Assembly (NCBI GenBank): GCA_038314665.1
Contig: GCA_038314665.1_3677.1
Source of the DNA: a phage
DNA length: 64,000 bases
Direction: 5' to 3' (one strand)
The notes below the pieces were generated by a model. That model was not told the origin of the DNA, did not search any database, and saw only the letters and a program-made list of their open reading frames with translations. Made by a program: the position numbers and the translations under genes. Below, piece by piece: positions 2,714-40,434 of the stretch (position 1 is the first letter of the stretch; the number at the start of each line of letters is the position of its first letter).

Positions 2714-5311
2714 ATGCGTATTCAACACAACATTGATAACGTATTTCAGATGATTGAGGGGCACAGGAAGTGCCTCGATAACAACACAGGTATTACCAAC
2801 ACCCCTACACAAAATAAGTTAGTGAACCCTGATGGTCTTATAGCTGCAGGGTGGGCAGGTAATAAGATAAATAATGATTGGGCAATGCATGAGGCCCAAG
2901 CTGTGTTGATTCTGGGGTACATTGAAGCATACAGGGCATCGAAAAGCGATTTCTACCTGGATAGGGCAAAAGATGCTTGGGAAGCTTACAATAGTCATCT
3001 TCTGGGTGCATATGCAGTAGAAAGTAAAATGCAAAGATTGTCCCACTACCCTCTATCCACAGACGGGGTTCCATCGCATGGTGGGTTTAAAGATGTAGTG
3101 GTGTCTTTTACCAATGGTAGAGGAAAAATCCCAGCTGGATCTCCGACATGGGGGGAATATCTGGACAAGGCATTCCAAGCGTATAACGGCGTGTTAGGAA
3201 GAAACACTGTAGACTCTGATGTTTACGGTGGCACAGATGATAACCCAGATTGGACAACATCCGGATTAAGTTGGTGGGTTGAGTGGTATATAGCATGGGA
3301 TGGTAATCGCTATTGGGCTAACGGTAGCATAGCTGATAGTGGTCATACGTCTGTAGAGTTTGGCACAATCCAATTACAAGACAAGGGTGTTACAGGCAAC
3401 CACAAAGTGACCTATTGTGTAAGATTACCTCAAGAGCAGGGTGGATCGGTGATCCCTGCTGGATCCCCTGTAATTGTGAATCCTATAAACGTGGTTGCAG
3501 ACAATCAAGCCCCAGAGTTGGATGGGGAAGAAATGTGGTGTGACGCTTGTTATCAACTCTACACCTTGACAGGTGAGGAAAAGTATTACACCGCGTTTAA
3601 ACAGTCTTACAACAAGTTGCTTAATTTCAGTGATATAAACGCTTACGACAAACTGTTTAGAAAGACCACGTTGATTAAGGCACCATTTACAGATGGTACT
3701 TGTCTTGTTGCAGGAACAGTTCCTGTCACGAGCAGAGACAGTGACGGGTATATCAATTTTAGAATGAACGCACGCCAGCCTTGCGAAATAATTCAAAAAG
3801 GTACCACCTACAAAATAGGCAGAGATGCTGAAATTGTCATGAATTTCGGAGGAGAGGGGGTTCTGTTCCAGCCACATTTCATCCTTAATGATGGCAACAA
3901 TAACAAAAAACAGTACAGGATAGGTGTCCCTTTTGGAGGTGCAGAGGTAACAGAAATAGTTGCCAAGGTTACCGATTTCGTAGAGGTAGTTGGTAAAGAC
4001 GGTAATCCGTACCTCTTACCTAAAGAGGAAAACATTGCCGTGAGCGGTGGTGCCAGTGTTAGTATGCAGTACGATACTGACATTTACAACCACTCTGACA
4101 ACTTCACCCGTTGTAATATAGCAAGAGGCAAAGTAACTTTCAATTTTGGAAGAGAGATTTCTTTAAACTCAGTAACTTATCGATCAGATGATGAGATGGT
4201 AAGGGTCAAATTTCTTGACAAAGATAGGTGGTTATGGTATGCTGATCTATATGCCACTAATGGACAATGGATAACAGAAACTCTTACTCTAGGAGATTTC
4301 AAACTAGATCCGACACAACCTCATCACACTGAAGAAGAGATTAAACCTTTCTTTGCTAATCCTAAGGGACTCACCTCTGTAGATTTCAGCCTAAGCGACA
4401 GACAGATAGGTAATGGCTTGTTTGATCTATATTGCGTCAACACACTGCCGCAATTCTATATTGCAGATAGGGATGCTTATCTAATCTGGTTTAGCGTATG
4501 GATGGCAAGCAAGACAGAATCAACCGCTAAGGTTGGTGATTGCTATGTCAGAAACTACAAGCAAGGTGCATACAGGCACACTCCTGGTGTGTTCCCTGCC
4601 GGAAAGGTGATAGATAAGGAAAATTACCTCTTGGAGGAAAAGCCAAATTGGCCATATCCAGGTATGCAATACCCAGCAGTCTACTGTATGGGTGCAGAAA
4701 ACATAGATCGCTATAGGTTGTCAAATACAATAGGCTTTCTGTATGACGCTCAAGTCTGGTATAATAACACATTTAAGACAGAGGGTCCAGTCGCCTCACG
4801 TTATGTATGGCAGAGAGGTAATGAAGGATTAACTGGTTGGTGGGAGATGGTAGATAACTCTAAGCTCCAGTCAAGATCTTTTGTTGCTGCGTGCCGCACA
4901 ATCTATGAGCTCAAGAAACATAAAGAACCTGTTGATGAAAGATTATTCCTGTTCTGCCAGAAATGGGCATGGTTCCTCAACAGATTCCAGTCATCTCATT
5001 CAGGAAATCTACCTACAGACTTTAACACCTCTGGGGGATATTCTTATCAAGACAGAGGAGACAGGATGTGGGTGGTAGGTGAATGGCTTGCAGGCTGCTG
5101 CTGGCTAGGTCTGTGCGGGTATTCAGAGACAATACCACAAATAGATATTGTTGTAGAAGCCTGTGTGAAGCTACTGCAAAAGCACCACTTCATTAATGGT
5201 GATAATGTTTTAAACGGCTGCTGGGCAGTTTCTGATCCGGTGGGCTATCACTCTGGCGAAATCCTTCGCGGTCTGGGACTTTATGCTCAATACCGTGGAT
5301 TGTACCTTTAA
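2714..5311 (+). CDS. large virion protein, possible tail-associated enzyme/tailspike
   Basis: 865-aa ORF inside fibre cluster, start overlaps upstream stop; Trp/Tyr-rich, no clear catalytic motif identified. Confidence 0.35.
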   Translation: MRIQHNIDNVFQMIEGHRKCLDNNTGITNTPTQNKLVNPDGLIAAGWAGNKINNDWAMHEAQAVLILGYIEAYRASKSDFYLDRAKDAWEAYNSHLLGAYAVESKMQRLSHYPLSTDGVPSHGGFKDVVVSFTNGRGKIPAGSPTWGEYLDKAFQAYNGVLGRNTVDSDVYGGTDDNPDWTTSGLSWWVEWYIAWDGNRYWANGSIADSGHTSVEFGTIQLQDKGVTGNHKVTYCVRLPQEQGGSVIPAGSPVIVNPINVVADNQAPELDGEEMWCDACYQLYTLTGEEKYYTAFKQSYNKLLNFSDINAYDKLFRKTTLIKAPFTDGTCLVAGTVPVTSRDSDGYINFRMNARQPCEIIQKGTTYKIGRDAEIVMNFGGEGVLFQPHFILNDGNNNKKQYRIGVPFGGAEVTEIVAKVTDFVEVVGKDGNPYLLPKEENIAVSGGASVSMQYDTDIYNHSDNFTRCNIARGKVTFNFGREISLNSVTYRSDDEMVRVKFLDKDRWLWYADLYATNGQWITETLTLGDFKLDPTQPHHTEEEIKPFFANPKGLTSVDFSLSDRQIGNGLFDLYCVNTLPQFYIADRDAYLIWFSVWMASKTESTAKVGDCYVRNYKQGAYRHTPGVFPAGKVIDKENYLLEEKPNWPYPGMQYPAVYCMGAENIDRYRLSNTIGFLYDAQVWYNNTFKTEGPVASRYVWQRGNEGLTGWWEMVDNSKLQSRSFVAACRTIYELKKHKEPVDERLFLFCQKWAWFLNRFQSSHSGNLPTDFNTSGGYSYQDRGDRMWVVGEWLAGCCWLGLCGYSETIPQIDIVVEACVKLLQKHHFINGDNVLNGCWAVSDPVGYHSGEILRGLGLYAQYRGLYL

Positions 5312-5315
5312 CATA

Positions 5316-5335
5316 GGGGGCTGTTTGCCCCCTTT
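5316..5335 (+). terminator. weak hairpin terminator-like element
   Basis: gggggc-tgttt-gccccc stem-loop then short T run, between stop 5311 and RBS of 5347. Confidence 0.3.
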
Positions 5336-5346
5336 CAGGAGAAAGA

Positions 5347-8300
5347 ATGGCTGATATTAAAGTTGTCAGAATTGAATCTCTTCCTGCCACTACCGCAGTG
5401 ACAGAGGATGATTACCTGGTTGTTCAACAACCAGACCTGACCCGTCGTGTAAAAATTGGCGATGTTGTCCATGTGGATGGGACTGTTTCTCATGTAATCT
5501 CCTTTAAGGAAGGTGGTAAGTTAAACGGCCCAATGGATTTTGCCTACTTCGAAGAGGAAGACCTCTACCTGCGTTGGAAAGGCGAATTTCCACACACTGT
5601 TCCTGCACTGTCTTCACCGTACTCCGATGGTGGGATTACTGACGCTGCATGGATGGTATATACTGATCCGTCCTTAAGGGAGGAGCTGGAATCTACCATT
5701 GGCGCATCCATGATTATGACAGCTGAAGGTCAGTCTGTCCAGGATGTAATGGATGTTACAGTTAAGACCGCCAACGATGCTAAAGCACTTGCACAGCGGG
5801 TAGATTTTGGTACCGTGCACACTGTAGGCGATGTTATTCACCTTGTCAATTTTGTTGGCCCTGCAGTTATTGAAGAGGGAAGAACTACTAACTACCCTTC
5901 TGTAGCAGCTGGTGAAAAATTCCTGAACGGTGTGGTATCTCGTCGTGATACTACAACTGTTGATGGTATTTTCCGTGGCGCTACCTCCGGAGCTATGTAC
6001 ACCATTGCAGTAACCAACGGTGTAGCAACAACAAAAAGAATAGCACTTCGTGATGAATTTAAACGCCTAGAGGCAAACAACCCAACAAGAACCATTATTC
6101 GTGCTGGTGATGATGTAAACACAGCCGGGTACTTGCAGCTTGATGCAACAGGTCGTTGGGGCATGTGGAACCAACAGACATCTTCATGGCAACCTCTTGC
6201 TGTAGAGCAAGGTGGTACAGGTGCCAGAGATGCCGCAGGTGCACGTATTAATTTAGGAACTTTTTATAAACAACGTGCAGCCCTTGAGGCAAATTTCAAT
6301 ATCAATAATTTGACGGGTAATCAGGATGGTGTATACTACCAGCCGATGACTGCTAATGCAACTGAGGAAAATGGCTACCCTGCAGGTTCTGGTGCTGGTC
6401 ACTTAATTGTTTGGCAGAACAATGCTAACGGCGGTGCAGGTTGTCGTCAGGAATACTATCCATTCTCTAACGTAGATGTTTGGTATTTGAGAACCTATCA
6501 GGCCAACACAAATCAGTGGACTGCATGGCAGCCTATGGTCAGACCTCGTAACGATGACACCTTCAGATCTCATATCGGCCTTGGTAAAAACAACTCACCA
6601 GCATTCGGGCACCTTTACTTAGCTCAATACTCTGGAGATGTTAAATCGGCCTCAGGTATTGTACACGGTGACAAGTATAATCGAGAAGGTACTCTTGAGC
6701 ATGGATATCGTATCTACTCTGAAGTAAGAAACGATAATAAAGCTTGGTTAACAATACACCTCCATAAGGGAGCTACTGGTGCAGAAACACATAGATACCT
6801 CGGATTCAGAGAGGATGGTGTTTTAGATTGTCCTAAATATATGCAGGTTGGCGATCTAAATGGTCAGCTGGCAAACTGGGGACTGGCAGAGTGGATCCGT
6901 AGTTCAGGCGCTGAAAGAGGTTTCTGGGGTTCCAAGAAAGCAGCCAAAATGGTTATCTGGGACGGAGGCATGGATGAGTCTGGTAACGGCACTCTGGAAT
7001 GGGGTGTTTATAACAACCGGAAGGCCAAGTGGGAACCTTTACCTCAAGCCGCAGGTGGTACTGGAGCTACAACTCTGGCAGAAGCTCAAAACCTGTTTAG
7101 AATACCTATGGCAGCAGGTGTAAAAGATTTCTTAACACTGCCAAGAACAGCAGCCATGGTGGATGGTAAATATTACCCTGTTATTGTAAGAACAGATCCG
7201 TACTATGCACCAGCTGTTGGGACAGATATTACAATAGTTACAAGATCCTCTTCTGGCAACGATCCTATGAACTGCGCAACACTCCAGTGTCATTACAGAA
7301 CTGGTGGTTGGACAGACCGTGGAGACTCTTTTACTGGTGTTATAAACTTCTACCAGAACGAAAGAGCAATACTTGGTTGTGTTGCTCCTACTCGCGGAAA
7401 ACAAGAGTATGTTGCTTTTTATGTAGAGGCCAGAGCTTTCCCAGTAAGCGTATATACAAGCCGAAACGTGCTTGAGGTATTTACCAGGGAAAATGACTGG
7501 CAGGTAGGGAATGTAACTGACAATCAGGACGGTGTTAAGTTTTGTGCTCCGTTAGAGTCAGCAGACTTAAATCTTGCGATAAAGGGTGATAATGTAACTA
7601 ACACCAGATCTCTTGCGGAGTTTAAAGGAACATCAGGTTTTTACACAGGCGGTGGTACTCAGTGGCACTACATCGGCACACCTGAACGCTATGCGGTCAT
7701 GAGTAAAATGACCATGCCTAAAGTTGAGCTGTGGGCAGATGGTATCGACTACCTATGCCCTGGTAGCCAGACCACAAGGAAAGCACTGTTCTCTAATGCT
7801 GGATTCCAGGCAGCATCTGAAGGTACAGAGGACTTAATTAACAACACATTTACTTCCAAATGCGGCAAGGGTGCAGGTCTGAAAGGCCAGTCAGAGTTCA
7901 GGTCTACCCCAGAGGCTGGACAGGTAATTGTCAGAGATGTTGTTGGTTCTGCACATAAATTCTTTAACTTCAACAAAGACGGCACATTCTACCCTCCTGG
8001 AGGTTATGTTTGCCAGACAGGTGCGGATTGGAACAATCAGTTTGGTAACACGAACCCGTCAAAAATAATGGCTGGTAATGTTAACGGACCTGAAGGTTCC
8101 ATGGTTGTAGCAGGGTTGTCGGTCGGTTTTTCTGGAAATTATGCATTCCAGATGGCTGGTCGTCTTGATCAGTTATACACTAGGTCTATTGAGGGTGGCA
8201 ATCACAGAGCGTGGAACAAGGTAATCCAACACCGTGGTCAGGGCCTAGGGACAAACGATCTTAATGACTACAAGGGCGATAGAGAGGGTTTTTATCATCA

Positions 8301-32389: not shown

Positions 32390-32635
32390 CTATAGTTCCA
32401 CTAGCAAAGTGCTTTCAAAGTGCCGTTCATGCAGACCGCTGTAAGGGACCACTTCCACAACACCATCACGGACATACGGGGCCATCATAGTGGTATACTC
32501 TCCAAACGGGTTGGTATTGTCACTAACCACAACCACCTTCTGCCCTTCCTTGGCAGAGTGCCAAATAGATCTACACTTCATCAGGTGTTCGAGAGCTCCA
32601 GGTAAAATTTTGTTACGTTCTTTACGGGTCTTCAT
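32390..32635 (-). CDS. hypothetical protein
   Basis: 81-aa ORF, tight spacing to neighbours. Confidence 0.35.
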   Translation of the reverse strand: MKTRKERNKILPGALEHLMKCRSIWHSAKEGQKVVVVSDNTNPFGEYTTMMAPYVRDGVVEVVPYSGLHERHFESTLLVEL

Positions 32636-33081
32636 AACAGATATAGCTCCTTATGAAAGTGGTCTTTTAATTTCTCACTGAGAAACTTCTTGATACCTTC
32701 CTCTAAAGTGTTTTCGATGTAGTCCAGCTTAACTGCTTCGATGGACATATCATAGATTGCCAGCTCTAAGCTGTCAAGTCCCATCATAGCATGAACCATA
32801 AGATTTTCATCTTCAGATACATTCAGGGGACTTCCTATAACATCTGGAGGCAGAATAGTTTCCCAATTATTCTGGGTGGTAGTTCTCCCGCCATCTACTT
32901 TACGGCGCAGTTCGAATGTGTTCTTAGTGTAGAACACTTCATAAGAAACGATACGACTGTCACTCTCATAATAAACGAAGTTCAGGTAGGAGCCTAGCCG
33001 CAGTCGGCAAACTTCCACCCCAAACCATTGTTTCTTATAAGAATTCAGGCTAATGCTGTCGCATTCACGTTTGCTCAACAC
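32632..33081 (-). CDS. hypothetical protein
   Basis: 149-aa ORF overlapping downstream gene by 4 nt. Confidence 0.4.
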   Translation of the reverse strand: MLSKRECDSISLNSYKKQWFGVEVCRLRLGSYLNFVYYESDSRIVSYEVFYTKNTFELRRKVDGGRTTTQNNWETILPPDVIGSPLNVSEDENLMVHAMMGLDSLELAIYDMSIEAVKLDYIENTLEEGIKKFLSEKLKDHFHKELYLL

Positions 33082-33097: not shown

Positions 33098-33331
33098 TTA
33101 ATCTTCGTAAATCAGGATTTCTGCTTTAGGTTTTCGTGCTTTCAGGTCCAGCTCTATCCAGTGCACCATAGCTGTTTCAAGAAAAACAGCTTGGATGCAT
33201 CCGTCCTCAGCGTGCCCCACCAACATAACAAGATCTTCACATTCGTCATCTGCATCACGAACATACAGAATCTCTCCAGATTCAAAGTCTTTCACAACCT
33301 GATTGCTGGATAATTTACGAATTTTTGCCAT
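33098..33331 (-). CDS. small protein, member 4 of tandem paralog array
   Basis: 77 aa; shares G-x-hydrophobic-V core and acidic pattern with the three upstream paralogs. Confidence 0.4.
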   Translation of the reverse strand: MAKIRKLSSNQVVKDFESGEILYVRDADDECEDLVMLVGHAEDGCIQAVFLETAMVHWIELDLKARKPKAEILIYED

Positions 33332-33332
33332 A

Positions 33333-33596
33333 TCAGAAACCCTCTAAAAAGCTCTTGTAGAAAACAATCTCAGTATCCACACCAGTCACGATCTTGTCGT
33401 TCCTGATTTCGTCGGTAAGATAGGTGTCAAAACGCAGAACCTGTGTGGTGTTGTCACACATCCACTCAGCTGTGACCATTGCGAAAATCTTAGCATCTTC
33501 ATTGTCTGGTGTGAATGTTACCACCTCACCGCACTTAAACTTTTCGATAGGTTGAGTGTTGGCTTTCGGTTCTGCGATAGTGATTTTTGTGGTCAT
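33333..33596 (-). CDS. small protein, member 3 of tandem paralog array
   Basis: 87 aa (MTTKITIAEPKANTQPIEKFKCGEVVTF..); start codon overlaps stop of upstream paralog. Confidence 0.45.
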   Translation of the reverse strand: MTTKITIAEPKANTQPIEKFKCGEVVTFTPDNEDAKIFAMVTAEWMCDNTTQVLRFDTYLTDEIRNDKIVTGVDTEIVFYKSFLEGF

Positions 33597-33859
33597 TATT
33601 CTCCTCCTTCTTTTGAATAGCTTGTCTCTCCAAGGATGGTAATTTTGGTGTCAAGCTCTGTAACTTTCATGTTTGGCGGCAGATCGTACAACTCATTATT
33701 TTCTAAATCGAAACCCCACACACAATGTTCTCCTGTTTTGACAATCATAACTATGTTTTGAATGCCGTCTCCGTCGCAACTTACCACGGTCCCACACGGA
33801 AAACTGTCTGCACGCTTTTTGTTCTTCACCTTAGAATTGAATACAATGCTAGTAGCCAT
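33596..33859 (-). CDS. small protein, member 2 of tandem paralog array
   Basis: 87 aa (MATSIVFNSKVKNKKRADSFPCGTVVSC..); ATGA overlap with neighbours. Confidence 0.45.
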   Translation of the reverse strand: MATSIVFNSKVKNKKRADSFPCGTVVSCDGDGIQNIVMIVKTGEHCVWGFDLENNELYDLPPNMKVTELDTKITILGETSYSKEGGE

Positions 33860-34122
33860 TATTGTTCCTCCACCATAACTTCGCCAAGAATTTCTATGCA
33901 GGCATCCATTTCTGTAACAACCGAACTGTGAGGTAGTTCTACAAACACCTTTCTGAACAGGTCAAATACCCCAACATATATGTTTGCAGGATGTGATTTT
34001 ACAACAAGTGCTGTATTCACATCCCCAAGTTCATCAACAAACATCACCACAGTGCCTGGAGCTACTGAGGACAGATACTTCTTAGTTTTACGGTTTGATG
34101 CAAATTTTAACTCTGTTGCCAT
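33859..34122 (-). CDS. small protein, member 1 of tandem paralog array
   Basis: 87 aa (MATELKFASNRKTKKYLSSVAPGTVVMF..); same length as members 2 and 3. Confidence 0.45.
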   Translation of the reverse strand: MATELKFASNRKTKKYLSSVAPGTVVMFVDELGDVNTALVVKSHPANIYVGVFDLFRKVFVELPHSSVVTEMDACIEILGEVMVEEQ

Positions 34123-34137
34123 AAATAACCTCCTCTC

Positions 34138-35619
34138 TTACTTAGCGTACTCGATTAATTCCACAGTTTTCCCAAAGCTCGGGATATAATTTTTATTATA
34201 CCCATCAGTGAGGACCCATAGAGTATCGTACTTTTTCCACTTGTTGTCAATAGCCTTTTGTTCAAAGTTATGCTCAAAGTATAGGTCGGTCAGGACGATG
34301 ACATCTTTTGCATTCGGTATGTTGGCATCCAGATACTCGAACACGCAAGCAGCTGTTGTTCCCCATGTTGAGTGGACCTCATAGTTGATTATCTCGTCTA
34401 TGTTGCCACGAGTGTATACTTTAACCTCTCCAACCTCAGTTGACCAACAGAACATTGTAACCTTAAACTCTTTATACAGATTGCACAATCCGGTGATTTC
34501 ATTGAACATTTTCTTTAAAGTTCTTTGAGAGATCGAGCCAGAAACGTCTAAAGCCACCACAATATCTATAGTGTTTTCCGGATTACGACCAGGAACAATA
34601 ACGTGCTGGTTCTTGTTTATAGCCCCAACTTTTCGCATTGTGCTGGTCAAAGACCCAGATCGGCGACCAGGTTTTCTGTAGGTCAGTTCGGCCTTTCTTT
34701 TAGACAACATGCGTTGCTTAATGATGTCTATATAATTGATTACGGGCTTACCTCTGTTCTTGACAAACTCGCGCACCGCCTCAGGGCAACGACCTCCGGA
34801 AGCTTGCATTGCTGCCTCCAGCATGTCACCAGAGTCCTGCATGGCCTGATCTTTATCAGATTGGCTGATTACAGGTTGTGGCTGATCATACCCCATAGCC
34901 TTTCCAAGATTATCACTGGTGCCACCATTCCCACTCATGTGATCATCGGTTTGTCGCTTATCGCCTTGAGAGTTCTCACCTTTACCGCTCTTACTTTTAC
35001 CGTTATTCTGATCTCTTTGCTTATCAAGAACTGCATAGACGTTCTCAGCAATCCATCCATGAAACTTCATGTCGCAGTAGCAGCTGGCTAAGAAGCCAAA
35101 AGGCTTACCTTTCACGAACGTAGTGCTTTTCCCCTTCGGGAAGAAAACACAAGGAGGTTTGCTAAAGTCAACCACAAGGCCTGTGTTGATAACGTGATCA
35201 CAAGCAATATTGAACAGTTCCGGCTCAAAGCTTTTACCACGGACCAGGTGATCACAGATAATATGCCCCACCTCATGTGACAAAAGAAAGGCCACCTCTT
35301 TCACAGATTTGGGGGAATAGAAAACCTCAGCCATCTCAAACTGCTCGTCAGTTAGAGAAGCCTTAAGAATAGCCCTGCGTTCGTCAGCCAACCCCACAAT
35401 GAACTCAGGACTGTAATAGATGCGTTTATGGTCGGTTGCCATGGTGGAGCACCATGTGTGGTTTTCTACGAACTGCAACCCTGACAGTAGTGTGCCATAA
35501 AAAGGCAGCTTTTCAAGAAGATACATACGTGCAGCTTGCAACATTCTCAGGGCATCATCTTTCTGTGAGGTAATGATTTCTGAACTTCTGCTATCCATTA
35601 AAACTCCAGAAGGGGCCAT
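34138..35619 (-). CDS. vWA-domain protein with N-terminal HExxH metallopeptidase-like domain
   Basis: 493 aa; HExxH in LLSHEVGHIICDH; C-terminal MIDAS-like DxSxS in VVALDVSGSIS; architecture of the kind that pairs with MoxR-type AAA+ ATPases. Confidence 0.6.
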   Translation of the reverse strand: MAPSGVLMDSRSSEIITSQKDDALRMLQAARMYLLEKLPFYGTLLSGLQFVENHTWCSTMATDHKRIYYSPEFIVGLADERRAILKASLTDEQFEMAEVFYSPKSVKEVAFLLSHEVGHIICDHLVRGKSFEPELFNIACDHVINTGLVVDFSKPPCVFFPKGKSTTFVKGKPFGFLASCYCDMKFHGWIAENVYAVLDKQRDQNNGKSKSGKGENSQGDKRQTDDHMSGNGGTSDNLGKAMGYDQPQPVISQSDKDQAMQDSGDMLEAAMQASGGRCPEAVREFVKNRGKPVINYIDIIKQRMLSKRKAELTYRKPGRRSGSLTSTMRKVGAINKNQHVIVPGRNPENTIDIVVALDVSGSISQRTLKKMFNEITGLCNLYKEFKVTMFCWSTEVGEVKVYTRGNIDEIINYEVHSTWGTTAACVFEYLDANIPNAKDVIVLTDLYFEHNFEQKAIDNKWKKYDTLWVLTDGYNKNYIPSFGKTVELIEYAK

Positions 35620-35631
35620 TGGCCCCTGTCA

Positions 35632-36675
35632 TTATTTAACGTGTTTGAAAATACCTGCCAACTCGGTCATTGTCATGCGAGTGGTCTTCATAAGGTCTGT
35701 CATAGCTTTCTCCATAATTGGAGATACTACCATAAAGTTTCCTTTAGTGAAACCTTTATTCCAGTCGGTCACCAACAGGGGTTTAAGTCCAGCTCCAAGA
35801 CGTTCACCAGTTAAAGCACAGCATTTGCGAATATACGAACTCTTAAATTGGCTGAACGACAGATCAACTTTCATACCTGCATCGTAGAACGTTTGACAAT
35901 AGAAAGTGTAAGCCTTAGCAATCTCAACATCATCAGGCAGTGCAGGAACCTCTTCTGCAATCCCCTCTTCGACCTCCTGAGGCTCTTTTTCCTCTTCAGA
36001 GTTCTGTTCTTCAACTTCTTCTGTCACAGTCTCGTTTACGATGTCTGAAATGTGTTTGTTGGCTGCACGATCAGCCATGAAATTTTTAAAGTCCTGCATT
36101 GGTGACATATCTTCTTCCTCTTCGTCAAAGAGTGCCAGTTTATCCTCTTCCGTTCCATATTGCAAGATGAAATCTTCAAAAGTATAATCACCTTTCAATT
36201 TCTCCATACGCTCTTCGCTCAGGTGGAGCATCATCTGCTGGACAATTTTTCGATCAGTTTCGTCTTTAATCAAGACTGCAGTCTTTTTATCTACCAGACA
36301 GTCCTTTAGAGAGTTGCATCTCAATCCCACCACACAACAGTTATCAACCGCATAAGGACCTTCATCATCTATCCGCTCCAGAGATGGGTAGAAAGGATTT
36401 CCCAGCCCGTTTTCATCTGTGTGCATGTCAAAAGGTATAAGGGTATAGTCGCATACTCCATCTCCTAAAAGTTTTTTACCAAATAGGAGGTATTCTTCCC
36501 ATGACAGGTCGAACTCTATATCTCGTTTCCGTGCATTATTCTGTTTGCGTCTATATTTTTTGAGCAGGCGCTCTAACTCTTCTGGTGTATAATATTTTTC
36601 AAGATTCATGAGTTGTCTCTCGTGCTCTGTAAGTGAAGAAATCGTATCAATTGTCTCAACAGATGTCAACATCAA
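35632..36675 (-). CDS. acidic hypothetical protein
   Basis: 347 aa with Glu/Asp-rich central region; first gene of the minus-strand array (TTG then ATG at 36670-36672). Confidence 0.45.
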   Translation of the reverse strand: MMLTSVETIDTISSLTEHERQLMNLEKYYTPEELERLLKKYRRKQNNARKRDIEFDLSWEEYLLFGKKLLGDGVCDYTLIPFDMHTDENGLGNPFYPSLERIDDEGPYAVDNCCVVGLRCNSLKDCLVDKKTAVLIKDETDRKIVQQMMLHLSEERMEKLKGDYTFEDFILQYGTEEDKLALFDEEEEDMSPMQDFKNFMADRAANKHISDIVNETVTEEVEEQNSEEEKEPQEVEEGIAEEVPALPDDVEIAKAYTFYCQTFYDAGMKVDLSFSQFKSSYIRKCCALTGERLGAGLKPLLVTDWNKGFTKGNFMVVSPIMEKAMTDLMKTTRMTMTELAGIFKHVK

Positions 36676-38980: not shown

Positions 38981-39250
38981 ATGTTATACCAGCAATATGA
39001 ACTTCGTGCAGAAAAAGAGTTAAATTTTGACAAAGATATTCACAGATATTATTATGGGAAAGTTAGAGGGCAAGCAAGAAAGTGTACTCCAACACTCTTT
39101 TATGCCAGCAGACGACTAGCGCCAGAAGAGGCAACAGCAGAAAGGGTTGCGTACAACTGGAGAGTCACGTATGATATTGACAGATCCGATGTGATATCTG
39201 TTTTGGAAAACTTTGAAAACACTTACACACAAGTAGAGGACTTTTACTAA
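38981..39250 (+). CDS. hypothetical protein
   Basis: 89-aa ORF, RBS AGGAG, stop overlaps next ATG. Confidence 0.4.
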   Translation: MLYQQYELRAEKELNFDKDIHRYYYGKVRGQARKCTPTLFYASRRLAPEEATAERVAYNWRVTYDIDRSDVISVLENFENTYTQVEDFY

Positions 39251-40434
39251 TGTCAAGAAACGTATTTGAAAGTGGTCAAATCACTGTCCGTGAGTTGCCA
39301 GCTATCATTCAGTTTGCCCAGCGTCATAACCGATCTGTCCTGATTTTAGGACCAATGGGCGTGGGAAAGAGCCAAGTGATGAAGCAGATCGCCGATAATA
39401 TGTTCGGTGAGCGAGATGATAACTTGGTTGACGTGCGACTGTCAGATAAAGATCCTGCCGACTTATCTGGGCTACCTATCCCTGTAGAAGCGGATGGAAC
39501 TACACGTACAGTATTTGCAATTCCAGAATTTTGGCCTGCGGATCCTGACTGGAGCGGAATTATCTTTCTGGATGAGCTCACTCATGCAGATAACTACCTG
39601 CAAAAGGTTGCAATGCAAATTATGCTCGACCACAAGTGCGGTACCTATGCATTCCCTAAGGGTTCTGTTTTTGTGGCTGCTGGTAACCGTTCTACAGATG
39701 GTGCGGTTCTTTCGGCGCTCGAAGCCCCTCTGGCTAACCGTTTTATCATTGTAGAAGTTACAAGCAATGCAGAGGTGTTTATTGAGGACTACGCATTCCT
39801 TAATGGGGTGCACTCCTCTGTAATTGGATATCTGAAAAGAGTTCCATCAGCTATCGATAATTATGAGGCCATGGCTGAGATTAATTGTCCATCTTTTGCC
39901 ACACCACGATCTTGGGTTGCTGCATCTGATATCTTGCACGATTTTGACAGCGGTATTATTTCTGACGCTATGGCCCGTGTTCTTCTGCAAGGTGCTATCG
40001 GTCACACTGCAGCGGTAGAGATCTGGACTTACCACACCAAGAAACGCAACTTACCGGAAATCGGTCGGATTATGGCAGGAGGTTGCAAAGAATACGTAGG
40101 TCCTAAACAGCCGGACATCTTGTGGATTCTTGGATCTGAAGGTTGTATCGCTATTCGTAATATGATGGAAAATGCAAGTATCTCCGACGAAGATCTTGTT
40201 AGCTGTGTGGCAAACTTCCTCGATTTCCTTTGGGAAAACTTCAAGGACGAGAACCGAGATTTTGTATTCTCAGTCTTTATGGCGATGATGAAACCTAATG
40301 CCTTAGGAAATGCCTTGCTTATCGGTAAAGGTCGTGACAAGATCGTTGCTCAGCTGATCAAAGCATACCCAAACCTGATGAAGATTGTAAAGGAGTTTGG
40401 TGAAGAGTTTAGCGCCATTTTGGCTAAAGCTTAA
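39250..40434 (+). CDS. AAA+ ATPase, MoxR-like
   Basis: 394 aa; Walker A ILGPMGVGKSQ, Walker B IIFLDELTHA, AAA_5-like spacing. Confidence 0.65.
   Translation: MSRNVFESGQITVRELPAIIQFAQRHNRSVLILGPMGVGKSQVMKQIADNMFGERDDNLVDVRLSDKDPADLSGLPIPVEADGTTRTVFAIPEFWPADPDWSGIIFLDELTHADNYLQKVAMQIMLDHKCGTYAFPKGSVFVAAGNRSTDGAVLSALEAPLANRFIIVEVTSNAEVFIEDYAFLNGVHSSVIGYLKRVPSAIDNYEAMAEINCPSFATPRSWVAASDILHDFDSGIISDAMARVLLQGAIGHTAAVEIWTYHTKKRNLPEIGRIMAGGCKEYVGPKQPDILWILGSEGCIAIRNMMENASISDEDLVSCVANFLDFLWENFKDENRDFVFSVFMAMMKPNALGNALLIGKGRDKIVAQLIKAYPNLMKIVKEFGEEFSAILAKA

Follow-up and report, generated by a model that had tools for sequence, protein, structure and literature searches.

Four tandem genes for small acidic proteins, probably diverged paralogs, in a putative early operon of Vequintavirus phages

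Large lytic phages carry variable accessory slots in their early regions, as in the hyperplastic regions of T4-like phages and in anti-defence islands. Vequintaviruses are widely isolated coliphages of broad host range that figure in biocontrol and therapy studies, and the function of about two thirds of their genes is unknown. Here we analyzed a stretch of 64,000 nucleotides (nt; contig GCA_038314665.1_3677.1, hereafter the window) from a Vequintavirus, that is, an rV5-like Escherichia coli myophage, and within it an array of four small genes, A, B, C and D, lying head-to-tail on the minus strand. Over 4.4 kb round the array, the window is 97-98% identical to HeinrichReichert, DrSchubert, Murica and >100 other phages, and in every deposited relative the four products are annotated as hypothetical proteins. 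Loci of this kind, made up of small accessory genes in the early region of a large lytic phage, are familiar. Like the known variable slots, it holds small early genes that are dispensable in the laboratory, exchanges a cassette between near-identical genomes, and adjoins proven or putative host-takeover and anti-defence genes. Unlike these slots, it includes two genes out of four, C and D, that hardly vary at all. The new elements are the linking, in one case tentative, of three PHROG families listed as unknown, the swapping of the first slot as a cassette, and the presence of two laboratory-dispensable genes that are the most constrained of their operon.

Judged by their sequences, A and B are certainly paralogs. 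Full-length identity is 37-39% (E about 1e-11; Smith-Waterman z = 17), and the two proteins match phrog_10698 over positions 1-87 of its 87 profile positions (E 1.3e-41 for A and 4.8e-41 for B). The same profile reached C at merely E 0.078 and gave no match to D. C is a member of phrog_12861 and D of phrog_12046 (PHROG matches of A-D, E 1e-41 to 1e-62), and PHROG handles the three as unrelated families without an assigned function, which are linked here. When a profile was built from A, B and X, the latter being a protein that replaces A and B in other Vequintaviruses, C was its top non-self match among the 462 stop-to-stop open reading frames (ORFs) of the window (E 1.3e-4, next match 0.6). 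HHalign comparison of C with an alignment of A, B, X and a further subtype, Y, gave 84% (E 7.5e-6) over 77/87 columns. C is very probably a true homolog of A and B, and on these profile matches phrog_10698 and phrog_12861 can be firmly joined into one superfamily.

D is probably the fourth paralog, related by true homology, and its family phrog_12046 is tentatively joined to the same superfamily. Among the 462 ORFs, D was the top non-self match of a profile of A/B/X plus C (E 4.9e-4, next match 0.48). The best non-self match of a D-only profile was C, and that of a C+D profile was B. The joint alignment of A to D is colinear from the basic N-terminus through a F-x-x-G-(T/E)-(V/I)-(V/L) motif to the last strand, and even the weak alignments keep one register. 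The scores of C against the A/B/X profile and of D against the A/B/X+C profile were each reached by 0/3000 composition-matched shuffles; with the z of 17 for A and B, the similarity within the array goes beyond composition, the point on which the sequence-only reading of this DNA had staked its claim of tandem paralogs. Several results speak against including D. Against the A/B/X profile it lay in the noise (E 2.5, a score reached by 81/3000 shuffles), HHalign assigned it probabilities of just 5.7% and 3.1% (P 0.007-0.014), and by itself it was without significance in pairwise or profile-profile comparison. The structural model of D described below is not independent evidence because its alignment included other members, and the model of B found the independently predicted D orthologue of phage naam merely at rank 26 among predicted viral structures, with a template modelling (TM) score of about 0.47. 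These results favor the alternative that only A, B and C are paralogous and that D is an unrelated small acidic protein of like composition and length, perhaps with a common small-barrel fold. We consider this rather unlikely in view of the 0/3000 shuffles, the reciprocal best matches and the single register. Moreover, F and H91, two neighbouring small genes taken as controls, differed from D in this respect: against the profiles they gave noise, with scores reached by 1371/3000 and 111/3000 shuffles, respectively. E, F and H91 were all rejected as family members. Tandem duplication and divergence, as proposed in the sequence-only reading, stands for A and B on identity and PHROG membership and for C on profile and HHalign matches, and holds for D only transitively, via C, the colinear alignment and a model that is not independent.

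The composition of the array is as the sequence-only reading had described it. According to the ORF list of the window, the four consecutive minus-strand genes encode 87, 87, 87 and 77 amino acids (aa). The proteins begin with MAT (A and B), MTT (C) and MAK (D), and carry the core motifs GTVV (A and B), GEVV (C) and GEIL (D). Their first 20 residues contain 3-5 K/R and have a net charge of +1 to +4, and the residues beyond have a net charge of -7 to -9, the isoelectric point of the whole proteins being 4.5-5.0. Starts overlap or abut the preceding stops: at the A/B and B/C junctions stop and start have one base in common within TAATG (positions 33859 and 33596, respectively), and at the C/D junction a single base lies between the TGA of C and the ATG of D (TGAtATG). 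This geometry suggests translational coupling of A to D. Independent initiation of each cistron is also possible, because each has a strong Shine-Dalgarno sequence of its own; the annotation of phage Murica places ribosome-binding sites at equivalent positions.

An AlphaFold2 model of B, computed from an alignment of A, B, X and Y, was all-beta (predicted local distance difference test, pLDDT, 80.9; predicted TM score 0.66), with an N-terminal hairpin, a short turn and a small barrel. In the model the barrel is five-stranded, strongly bent and antiparallel, as in SH3/Tudor-like small beta-barrels. The model of D (pLDDT 81.8) had the strand order and structural neighbours of the B model and points to compatibility with the family fold. 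Against predicted viral structures, the B model matched A of phage nomo (TM 0.92) and then X of Pr121LW. By sequence-profile search with the array proteins, Pfam, NCBIfam and the PDB gave nothing above noise; in particular, there was no Tudor family match in Pfam at E up to 1 or in the PDB, and no KOW, CarD/TRCF or UvrD_C signature by Pfam. The proteins are alike in predicted fold to SH3-like barrels such as Tudor, KOW, the C-terminal domains of uL2 and UvrD/PcrA and the RNA-polymerase-interacting domain of CarD, without any sequence similarity to them. They differ from these domains in that a basic hairpin is added at the N-terminus, the tail is acidic, and each is a free-standing single-domain protein. 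The small binding module imagined in the sequence-only reading fits such a predicted SH3/Tudor-like barrel without catalytic signature; its further suggestion, that the proteins may be inhibitors or decoys differing in specificity, is a reasonable guess.

Further weak matches of the B model were many uncharacterised phage proteins of 70-90 aa, including gp21 of phage N4 (Foldseek E 1e-3 to 3e-2, TM 0.5-0.7). N4 gp21 lies in the same operon as the ATPase gp24 and the DUF2201 protein gp25. Its sequence relationship to the array is not detectable, and the likeness may reflect a common fold. In the N4-like phage Jura (1444-4595 of the locus analyzed), a 74-aa gp21, gp24 (the N4 ATPase) and gp25 (DUF2201) form one operon a few genes ahead of a rIIA-like gene, and in the Vequintavirus window MoxR, DUF2201 and rIIA/rIIB genes are likewise near one another. 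The shared neighbourhood may be recurring or a coincidence.

The family is an orphan. Word-indexed searches with A, D and the A/B/X profile returned only near-identical Vequintavirus proteins and a divergent B' variant, and the search with A failed to recover even B. When 1.84 billion cluster representatives were searched exhaustively with HMMER, three real clusters emerged (A-type, B-type and X/Y-type), with subtype Y as the sole real addition; one further match, a eukaryotic protein with ankyrin repeats, was spurious and was put down to the repeats. By tblastn against 50,697 phage records, A, C and X were confined to the same 118 Vequintavirus records. In the genera Seunavirus, Mydovirus and Certrevirus the array is absent downstream of the DUF2201 gene, and no profile match was found in phages 4MG, BIS47 and PBES 02. 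In Seunavirus 4MG and Mydovirus BIS47 a homolog of gene E, the downstream neighbour of D, comes immediately after the metallopeptidase gene that precedes A in the window (4MG_239, 30% identity, E 1.4e-8; BIS47_215, E 0.007). Since the array is absent from these genera and E follows the metallopeptidase there, the array is a Vequintavirus-specific insertion between the two.

Within the genus, the first slot of the array is exchangeable. It holds two genes (A+B) in 44/118 Vequintavirus records and a single 85-aa gene, X, in the other 74/118, among them rV5, FV3 and Bas54, so that copy number varies across related phages. X is a third subtype with 38-41% identity to A and to B; in rV5 it is gp014, and rV5 gp014, gp015 and gp016 (ORFs 14-16), like bas54_0054, bas54_0053 and bas54_0052 of phage Bas54, are orthologous to the cassette, C and D, respectively. 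In DNA alignment of the window with rV5 and naam, an identity of about 97% is lost right after the fourth codon of A (ATGGCAACAGAG) and resumes at the ATG of C. The A+B pair can be swapped as a cassette, with sharp breakpoints, between genomes that are otherwise about 97% identical. The cassette type is not tied to species assignment: Murica and Gotham carry A+B and Pr121LW carries X, and all three are classified as 'Vequintavirus murica'. X was rejected as a simple recombinant of A and B, its identity to both being similar in every quarter of the alignment. Subtype Y is 61% identical to X and lies on a metagenomic contig with no C, D or metallopeptidase gene adjacent. On this contig (European Nucleotide Archive, 2731 nt) the neighbours of Y are a 211-aa gene, which is unrelated, and a 143-aa gene with 62% identity to the window ORF at 30813-30430; they indicate that the early region has been rearranged in this more distant relative.

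C and D behave in the opposite way. C is 93-100% identical in all 118 records. Its ratio of nonsynonymous to synonymous substitution rates (dN/dS) is 0.01-0.02 at a dS of 0.55-0.66, and C and D together span a dN/dS of 0.01-0.09. Compared with a divergent lineage (L007/L009), C retains 97.7% identity (dN/dS 0.02, dS 0.66) and D 93.5% (dN/dS 0.06), whereas the neighbouring genes have 36-81% identity with saturated dS, and A (55%) and B (64%) diverge as the neighbours do. No other gene of the operon is as constrained as C and D, which are under very strong purifying selection. Because dS is substantial, the constraint acts on the C and D proteins and not on the DNA.

Transposon insertion data are available for Bas54 (MaxBurger, MZ501093), an X-type phage, from the HIDEN-SEQ preprint (doi 10.1101/2025.11.20.689424). 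Its bas54_0054 is X, with 99% identity to rV5 gp14, and bas54_0053 and bas54_0052 are one residue off the C and D of the window, respectively. In that study X, C and D were non-essential on E. coli K-12, with 17/17, 13/15 and 12/12 TA sites hit (doi 10.1101/2025.11.20.689424). The comparison of K-12 with a clinical host concerned one isolate, CFE311, and covered the orthologues X, C and D. There, insertions were depleted in the MoxR ATPase gene (log2 fold change, log2FC, -7.23, q 0) and in the metallopeptidase gene (log2FC -2.20, q 0.009), E had a log2FC of -2.28 (p 0.028, q 0.195), and the MoxR ATPase gene, bas54_0063, was required against the DS-28 defence (doi 10.1101/2025.11.20.689424). 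In the Extended Data Table 8 (S6/S7) of the preprint, the sheet for K-12 versus CFE303 repeats the command line (with the 311 sample) and the values of the CFE311 sheet.

The reading that we favor, with a probability of roughly 0.6, is that the array consists of genus-specific diverged paralogs for small acidic SH3/Tudor-like beta-barrel proteins with a short basic N-terminal hairpin, which would serve as accessory binders encoded in an early operon. The operon would be transcribed from a sigma70-type early promoter, behind the genes for a Srd-like anti-sigma factor and the DUF2201/VWA protein, and the one-base stop/start overlaps would make translation roughly coordinated. The proteins would be non-catalytic, stoichiometric binders of host macromolecules in early infection and would assist either host takeover or counter-defence. 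The first slot, which varies, would follow a host factor that varies too, and C and D one that is conserved; that the first slot is swappable while C and D are invariant suggests different kinds of target. On this best-supported reading, the proteins are dispensable on a laboratory host and strongly selected in nature. In addition to the doubts about D, the data from the clinical isolate weigh against this reading. On CFE311, X (log2FC +0.46, p 0.33) and C (log2FC +0.33, p 0.64) were not depleted, and the depletion of D was non-significant (log2FC -1.32, q 0.68; doi 10.1101/2025.11.20.689424). A conditional requirement on a defended host, the mark of an anti-defence gene, was accordingly not seen for X, C or D on this single clinical isolate (q 0.68 or higher). 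Early expression, for its part, is predicted from the promoter consensus and the rV5 annotation.

A more specific form of the binder reading is a modular counter-defence or host-takeover kit built on one scaffold, in which the first slot would be an exchangeable specificity cassette fitted to some host factor that differs between strains, a defence system for instance. C and D would disable a host target that does not vary; this might be a surface of RNA polymerase, bound much as bacterial Tudor-like RNA-polymerase-binding domains bind it. The kit would account for the dispensability on K-12 of genes under a dN/dS of about 0.02, and is in our estimation unlikely. Tudor-like barrels are known to dock on RNA polymerase in the C-terminal domain of UvrD/PcrA and in the RNA-polymerase-interacting domains of CarD and Mfd. 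By analogy, the array proteins could be transcription modulators docking on the host enzyme through their predicted barrel and cooperating with the Srd-like anti-sigma factor, with whose gene they share an operon; the extreme conservation of C and D would suit a conserved target of this sort. Such a role is possible by generic fold similarity only, and we regard it as quite unlikely: the structural matches to RNA-polymerase-binding domains were no better than those to dozens of other SH3-like barrels, the signatures sought in Pfam were absent, and X, C and D are dispensable in laboratory infection.

The location of the array directly downstream of the DUF2201 gene, in the same operon, is the starting point for another proposal, namely that the array proteins serve the DUF2201/VWA protein and the MoxR ATPase as adaptors, substrates or regulators, and that these two jointly counter a host defence. 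The need for the MoxR ATPase against DS-28, the depletion of the metallopeptidase on CFE311 and the structurally similar 74-aa gp21 in the gp24-gp25 operon of N4-like phages are in line with it. A partner role is disfavoured, and in our judgement improbable, because on CFE311 insertions were depleted in MoxR and DUF2201 but not in X and C, because DUF2201 and MoxR persist in other genera of the Vequintavirinae that lack the array, and because Y occurs alone, without adjacent DUF2201, C or D. It is very improbable that the proteins are virion or assembly components. The PHROG label 'tail protein' of the neighbour E would agree with such a role, but the sigma70 early operon of the array diverges from the structural modules, insertions are tolerated in X, C, D and E alike, and gp14-16 go unmentioned in the main text of the rV5 paper on genomics and proteomics. 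The present findings give concrete, cheap targets in the search for host-interaction or counter-defence functions, and if no function emerges, the array is a tidy example of phage early-region growth by tandem duplication.

The array belongs to one long minus-strand operon with the order Srd-like gene, DUF2201 metallopeptidase/VWA gene, A, B, C, D, E, F and further small genes (Table 1). The sigma70-type promoter-like site ahead of the Srd-like gene probably drives it, as judged from its consensus and its match to rV5, and no terminator-like site was found on the minus strand between 30000 and 37500. The mechanically called ORF of the Srd-like gene, 35632-36675 (-), starts with TTG at 36675 and encodes 347 aa; in relatives the gene is annotated with 978 nt (325 aa), equivalent to a start at ATG 36609. 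The shorter gene is favoured because the promoter-like site (36669-36641) falls within the longer ORF. The rV5 genomics and proteomics paper describes gp11 as a Srd homolog.

Table 1. Features of the array and its surroundings in the window
Feature	Position	Strand	Remark
Gene A	33859..34122	-	87 aa, acidic, predicted small beta-barrel protein; first half of variable cassette
Gene B	33596..33859	-	87 aa; paralog of A; second half of variable cassette
Gene C	33333..33596	-	87 aa; distant paralog (very probable), ultra-conserved
Gene D	33098..33331	-	77 aa; probable, most diverged paralog, highly conserved
Variable cassette	33600..34110	-	A after codon 4, plus B
Shine-Dalgarno of A	34129..34135	-	GAGGAGG, read from sequence
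Shine-Dalgarno of B	33867-33871	-	GGAGG
Shine-Dalgarno of C	33603-33608	-	AGGAGG
Shine-Dalgarno of D	33340-33344	-	GAGGG
DUF2201 metallopeptidase + VWA-like protein	34138..35619	-	Pfam PF13203 1.3e-27, PF09967 5.5e-11; adjoins A upstream
Srd-like putative anti-sigma factor	35632..36609	-	First operon gene; PHROG matches to Srd and sigma70 decoy family
Sigma70-type promoter-like site	36641..36669	-	TTGACA-17-TACGAT, extended TG; matches P11 annotated in rV5
Gene E	32632..33081	-	149 aa; downstream neighbour; homolog directly follows metallopeptidase in other genera
Gene F	32390-32635	-	81 aa; small gene beyond E

The MoxR-type ATPase gene (39250-40434, +) and the DUF2201 metallopeptidase/VWA gene lie in divergent operons of the window, and in functional terms nothing else near the array is as interesting as these two genes. 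Gene E, in which 30/33 TA sites were hit in Bas54, has the PHROG label 'tail protein' and is nevertheless a gene of the putative early operon. It tolerates insertions and is conserved directly after DUF2201 in Seunavirus and Mydovirus, and the label looks wrong. On CFE311, E was depleted about as strongly as the metallopeptidase; it may act together with DUF2201/MoxR. In the divergent lineage L007/L009, no gene was called at the position of F (5224-5471), between the homologs of E and G188, where F may be missing or too diverged.

Some database entries for the locus deserve comment. In the rV5 reference (NC_011041, 1257-2718) the DUF2201 gene is split into the overlapping gp012 (1326 nt) and gp013 (246 nt), and in other Vequintaviruses it is a single gene of 1461-1494 nt; a frameshift, or an error in sequencing the reference, probably accounts for the split. 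RefSeq labels rV5 gp011 and gp012 as 'HNH endonuclease', which for the metallopeptidase is without Pfam support. In addition, 16 MG0656xx records bear the name 'Campylobacter phage' and give Campylobacter jejuni as host; across the locus they share 97-99% identity with E. coli Vequintaviruses, and their host label looks doubtful. The divergent B' variant recovered by the word-indexed searches is protein P0032, the Jura locus described above is L015, the rV5 reference locus is L003, and the metagenomic contig carrying Y is L010.

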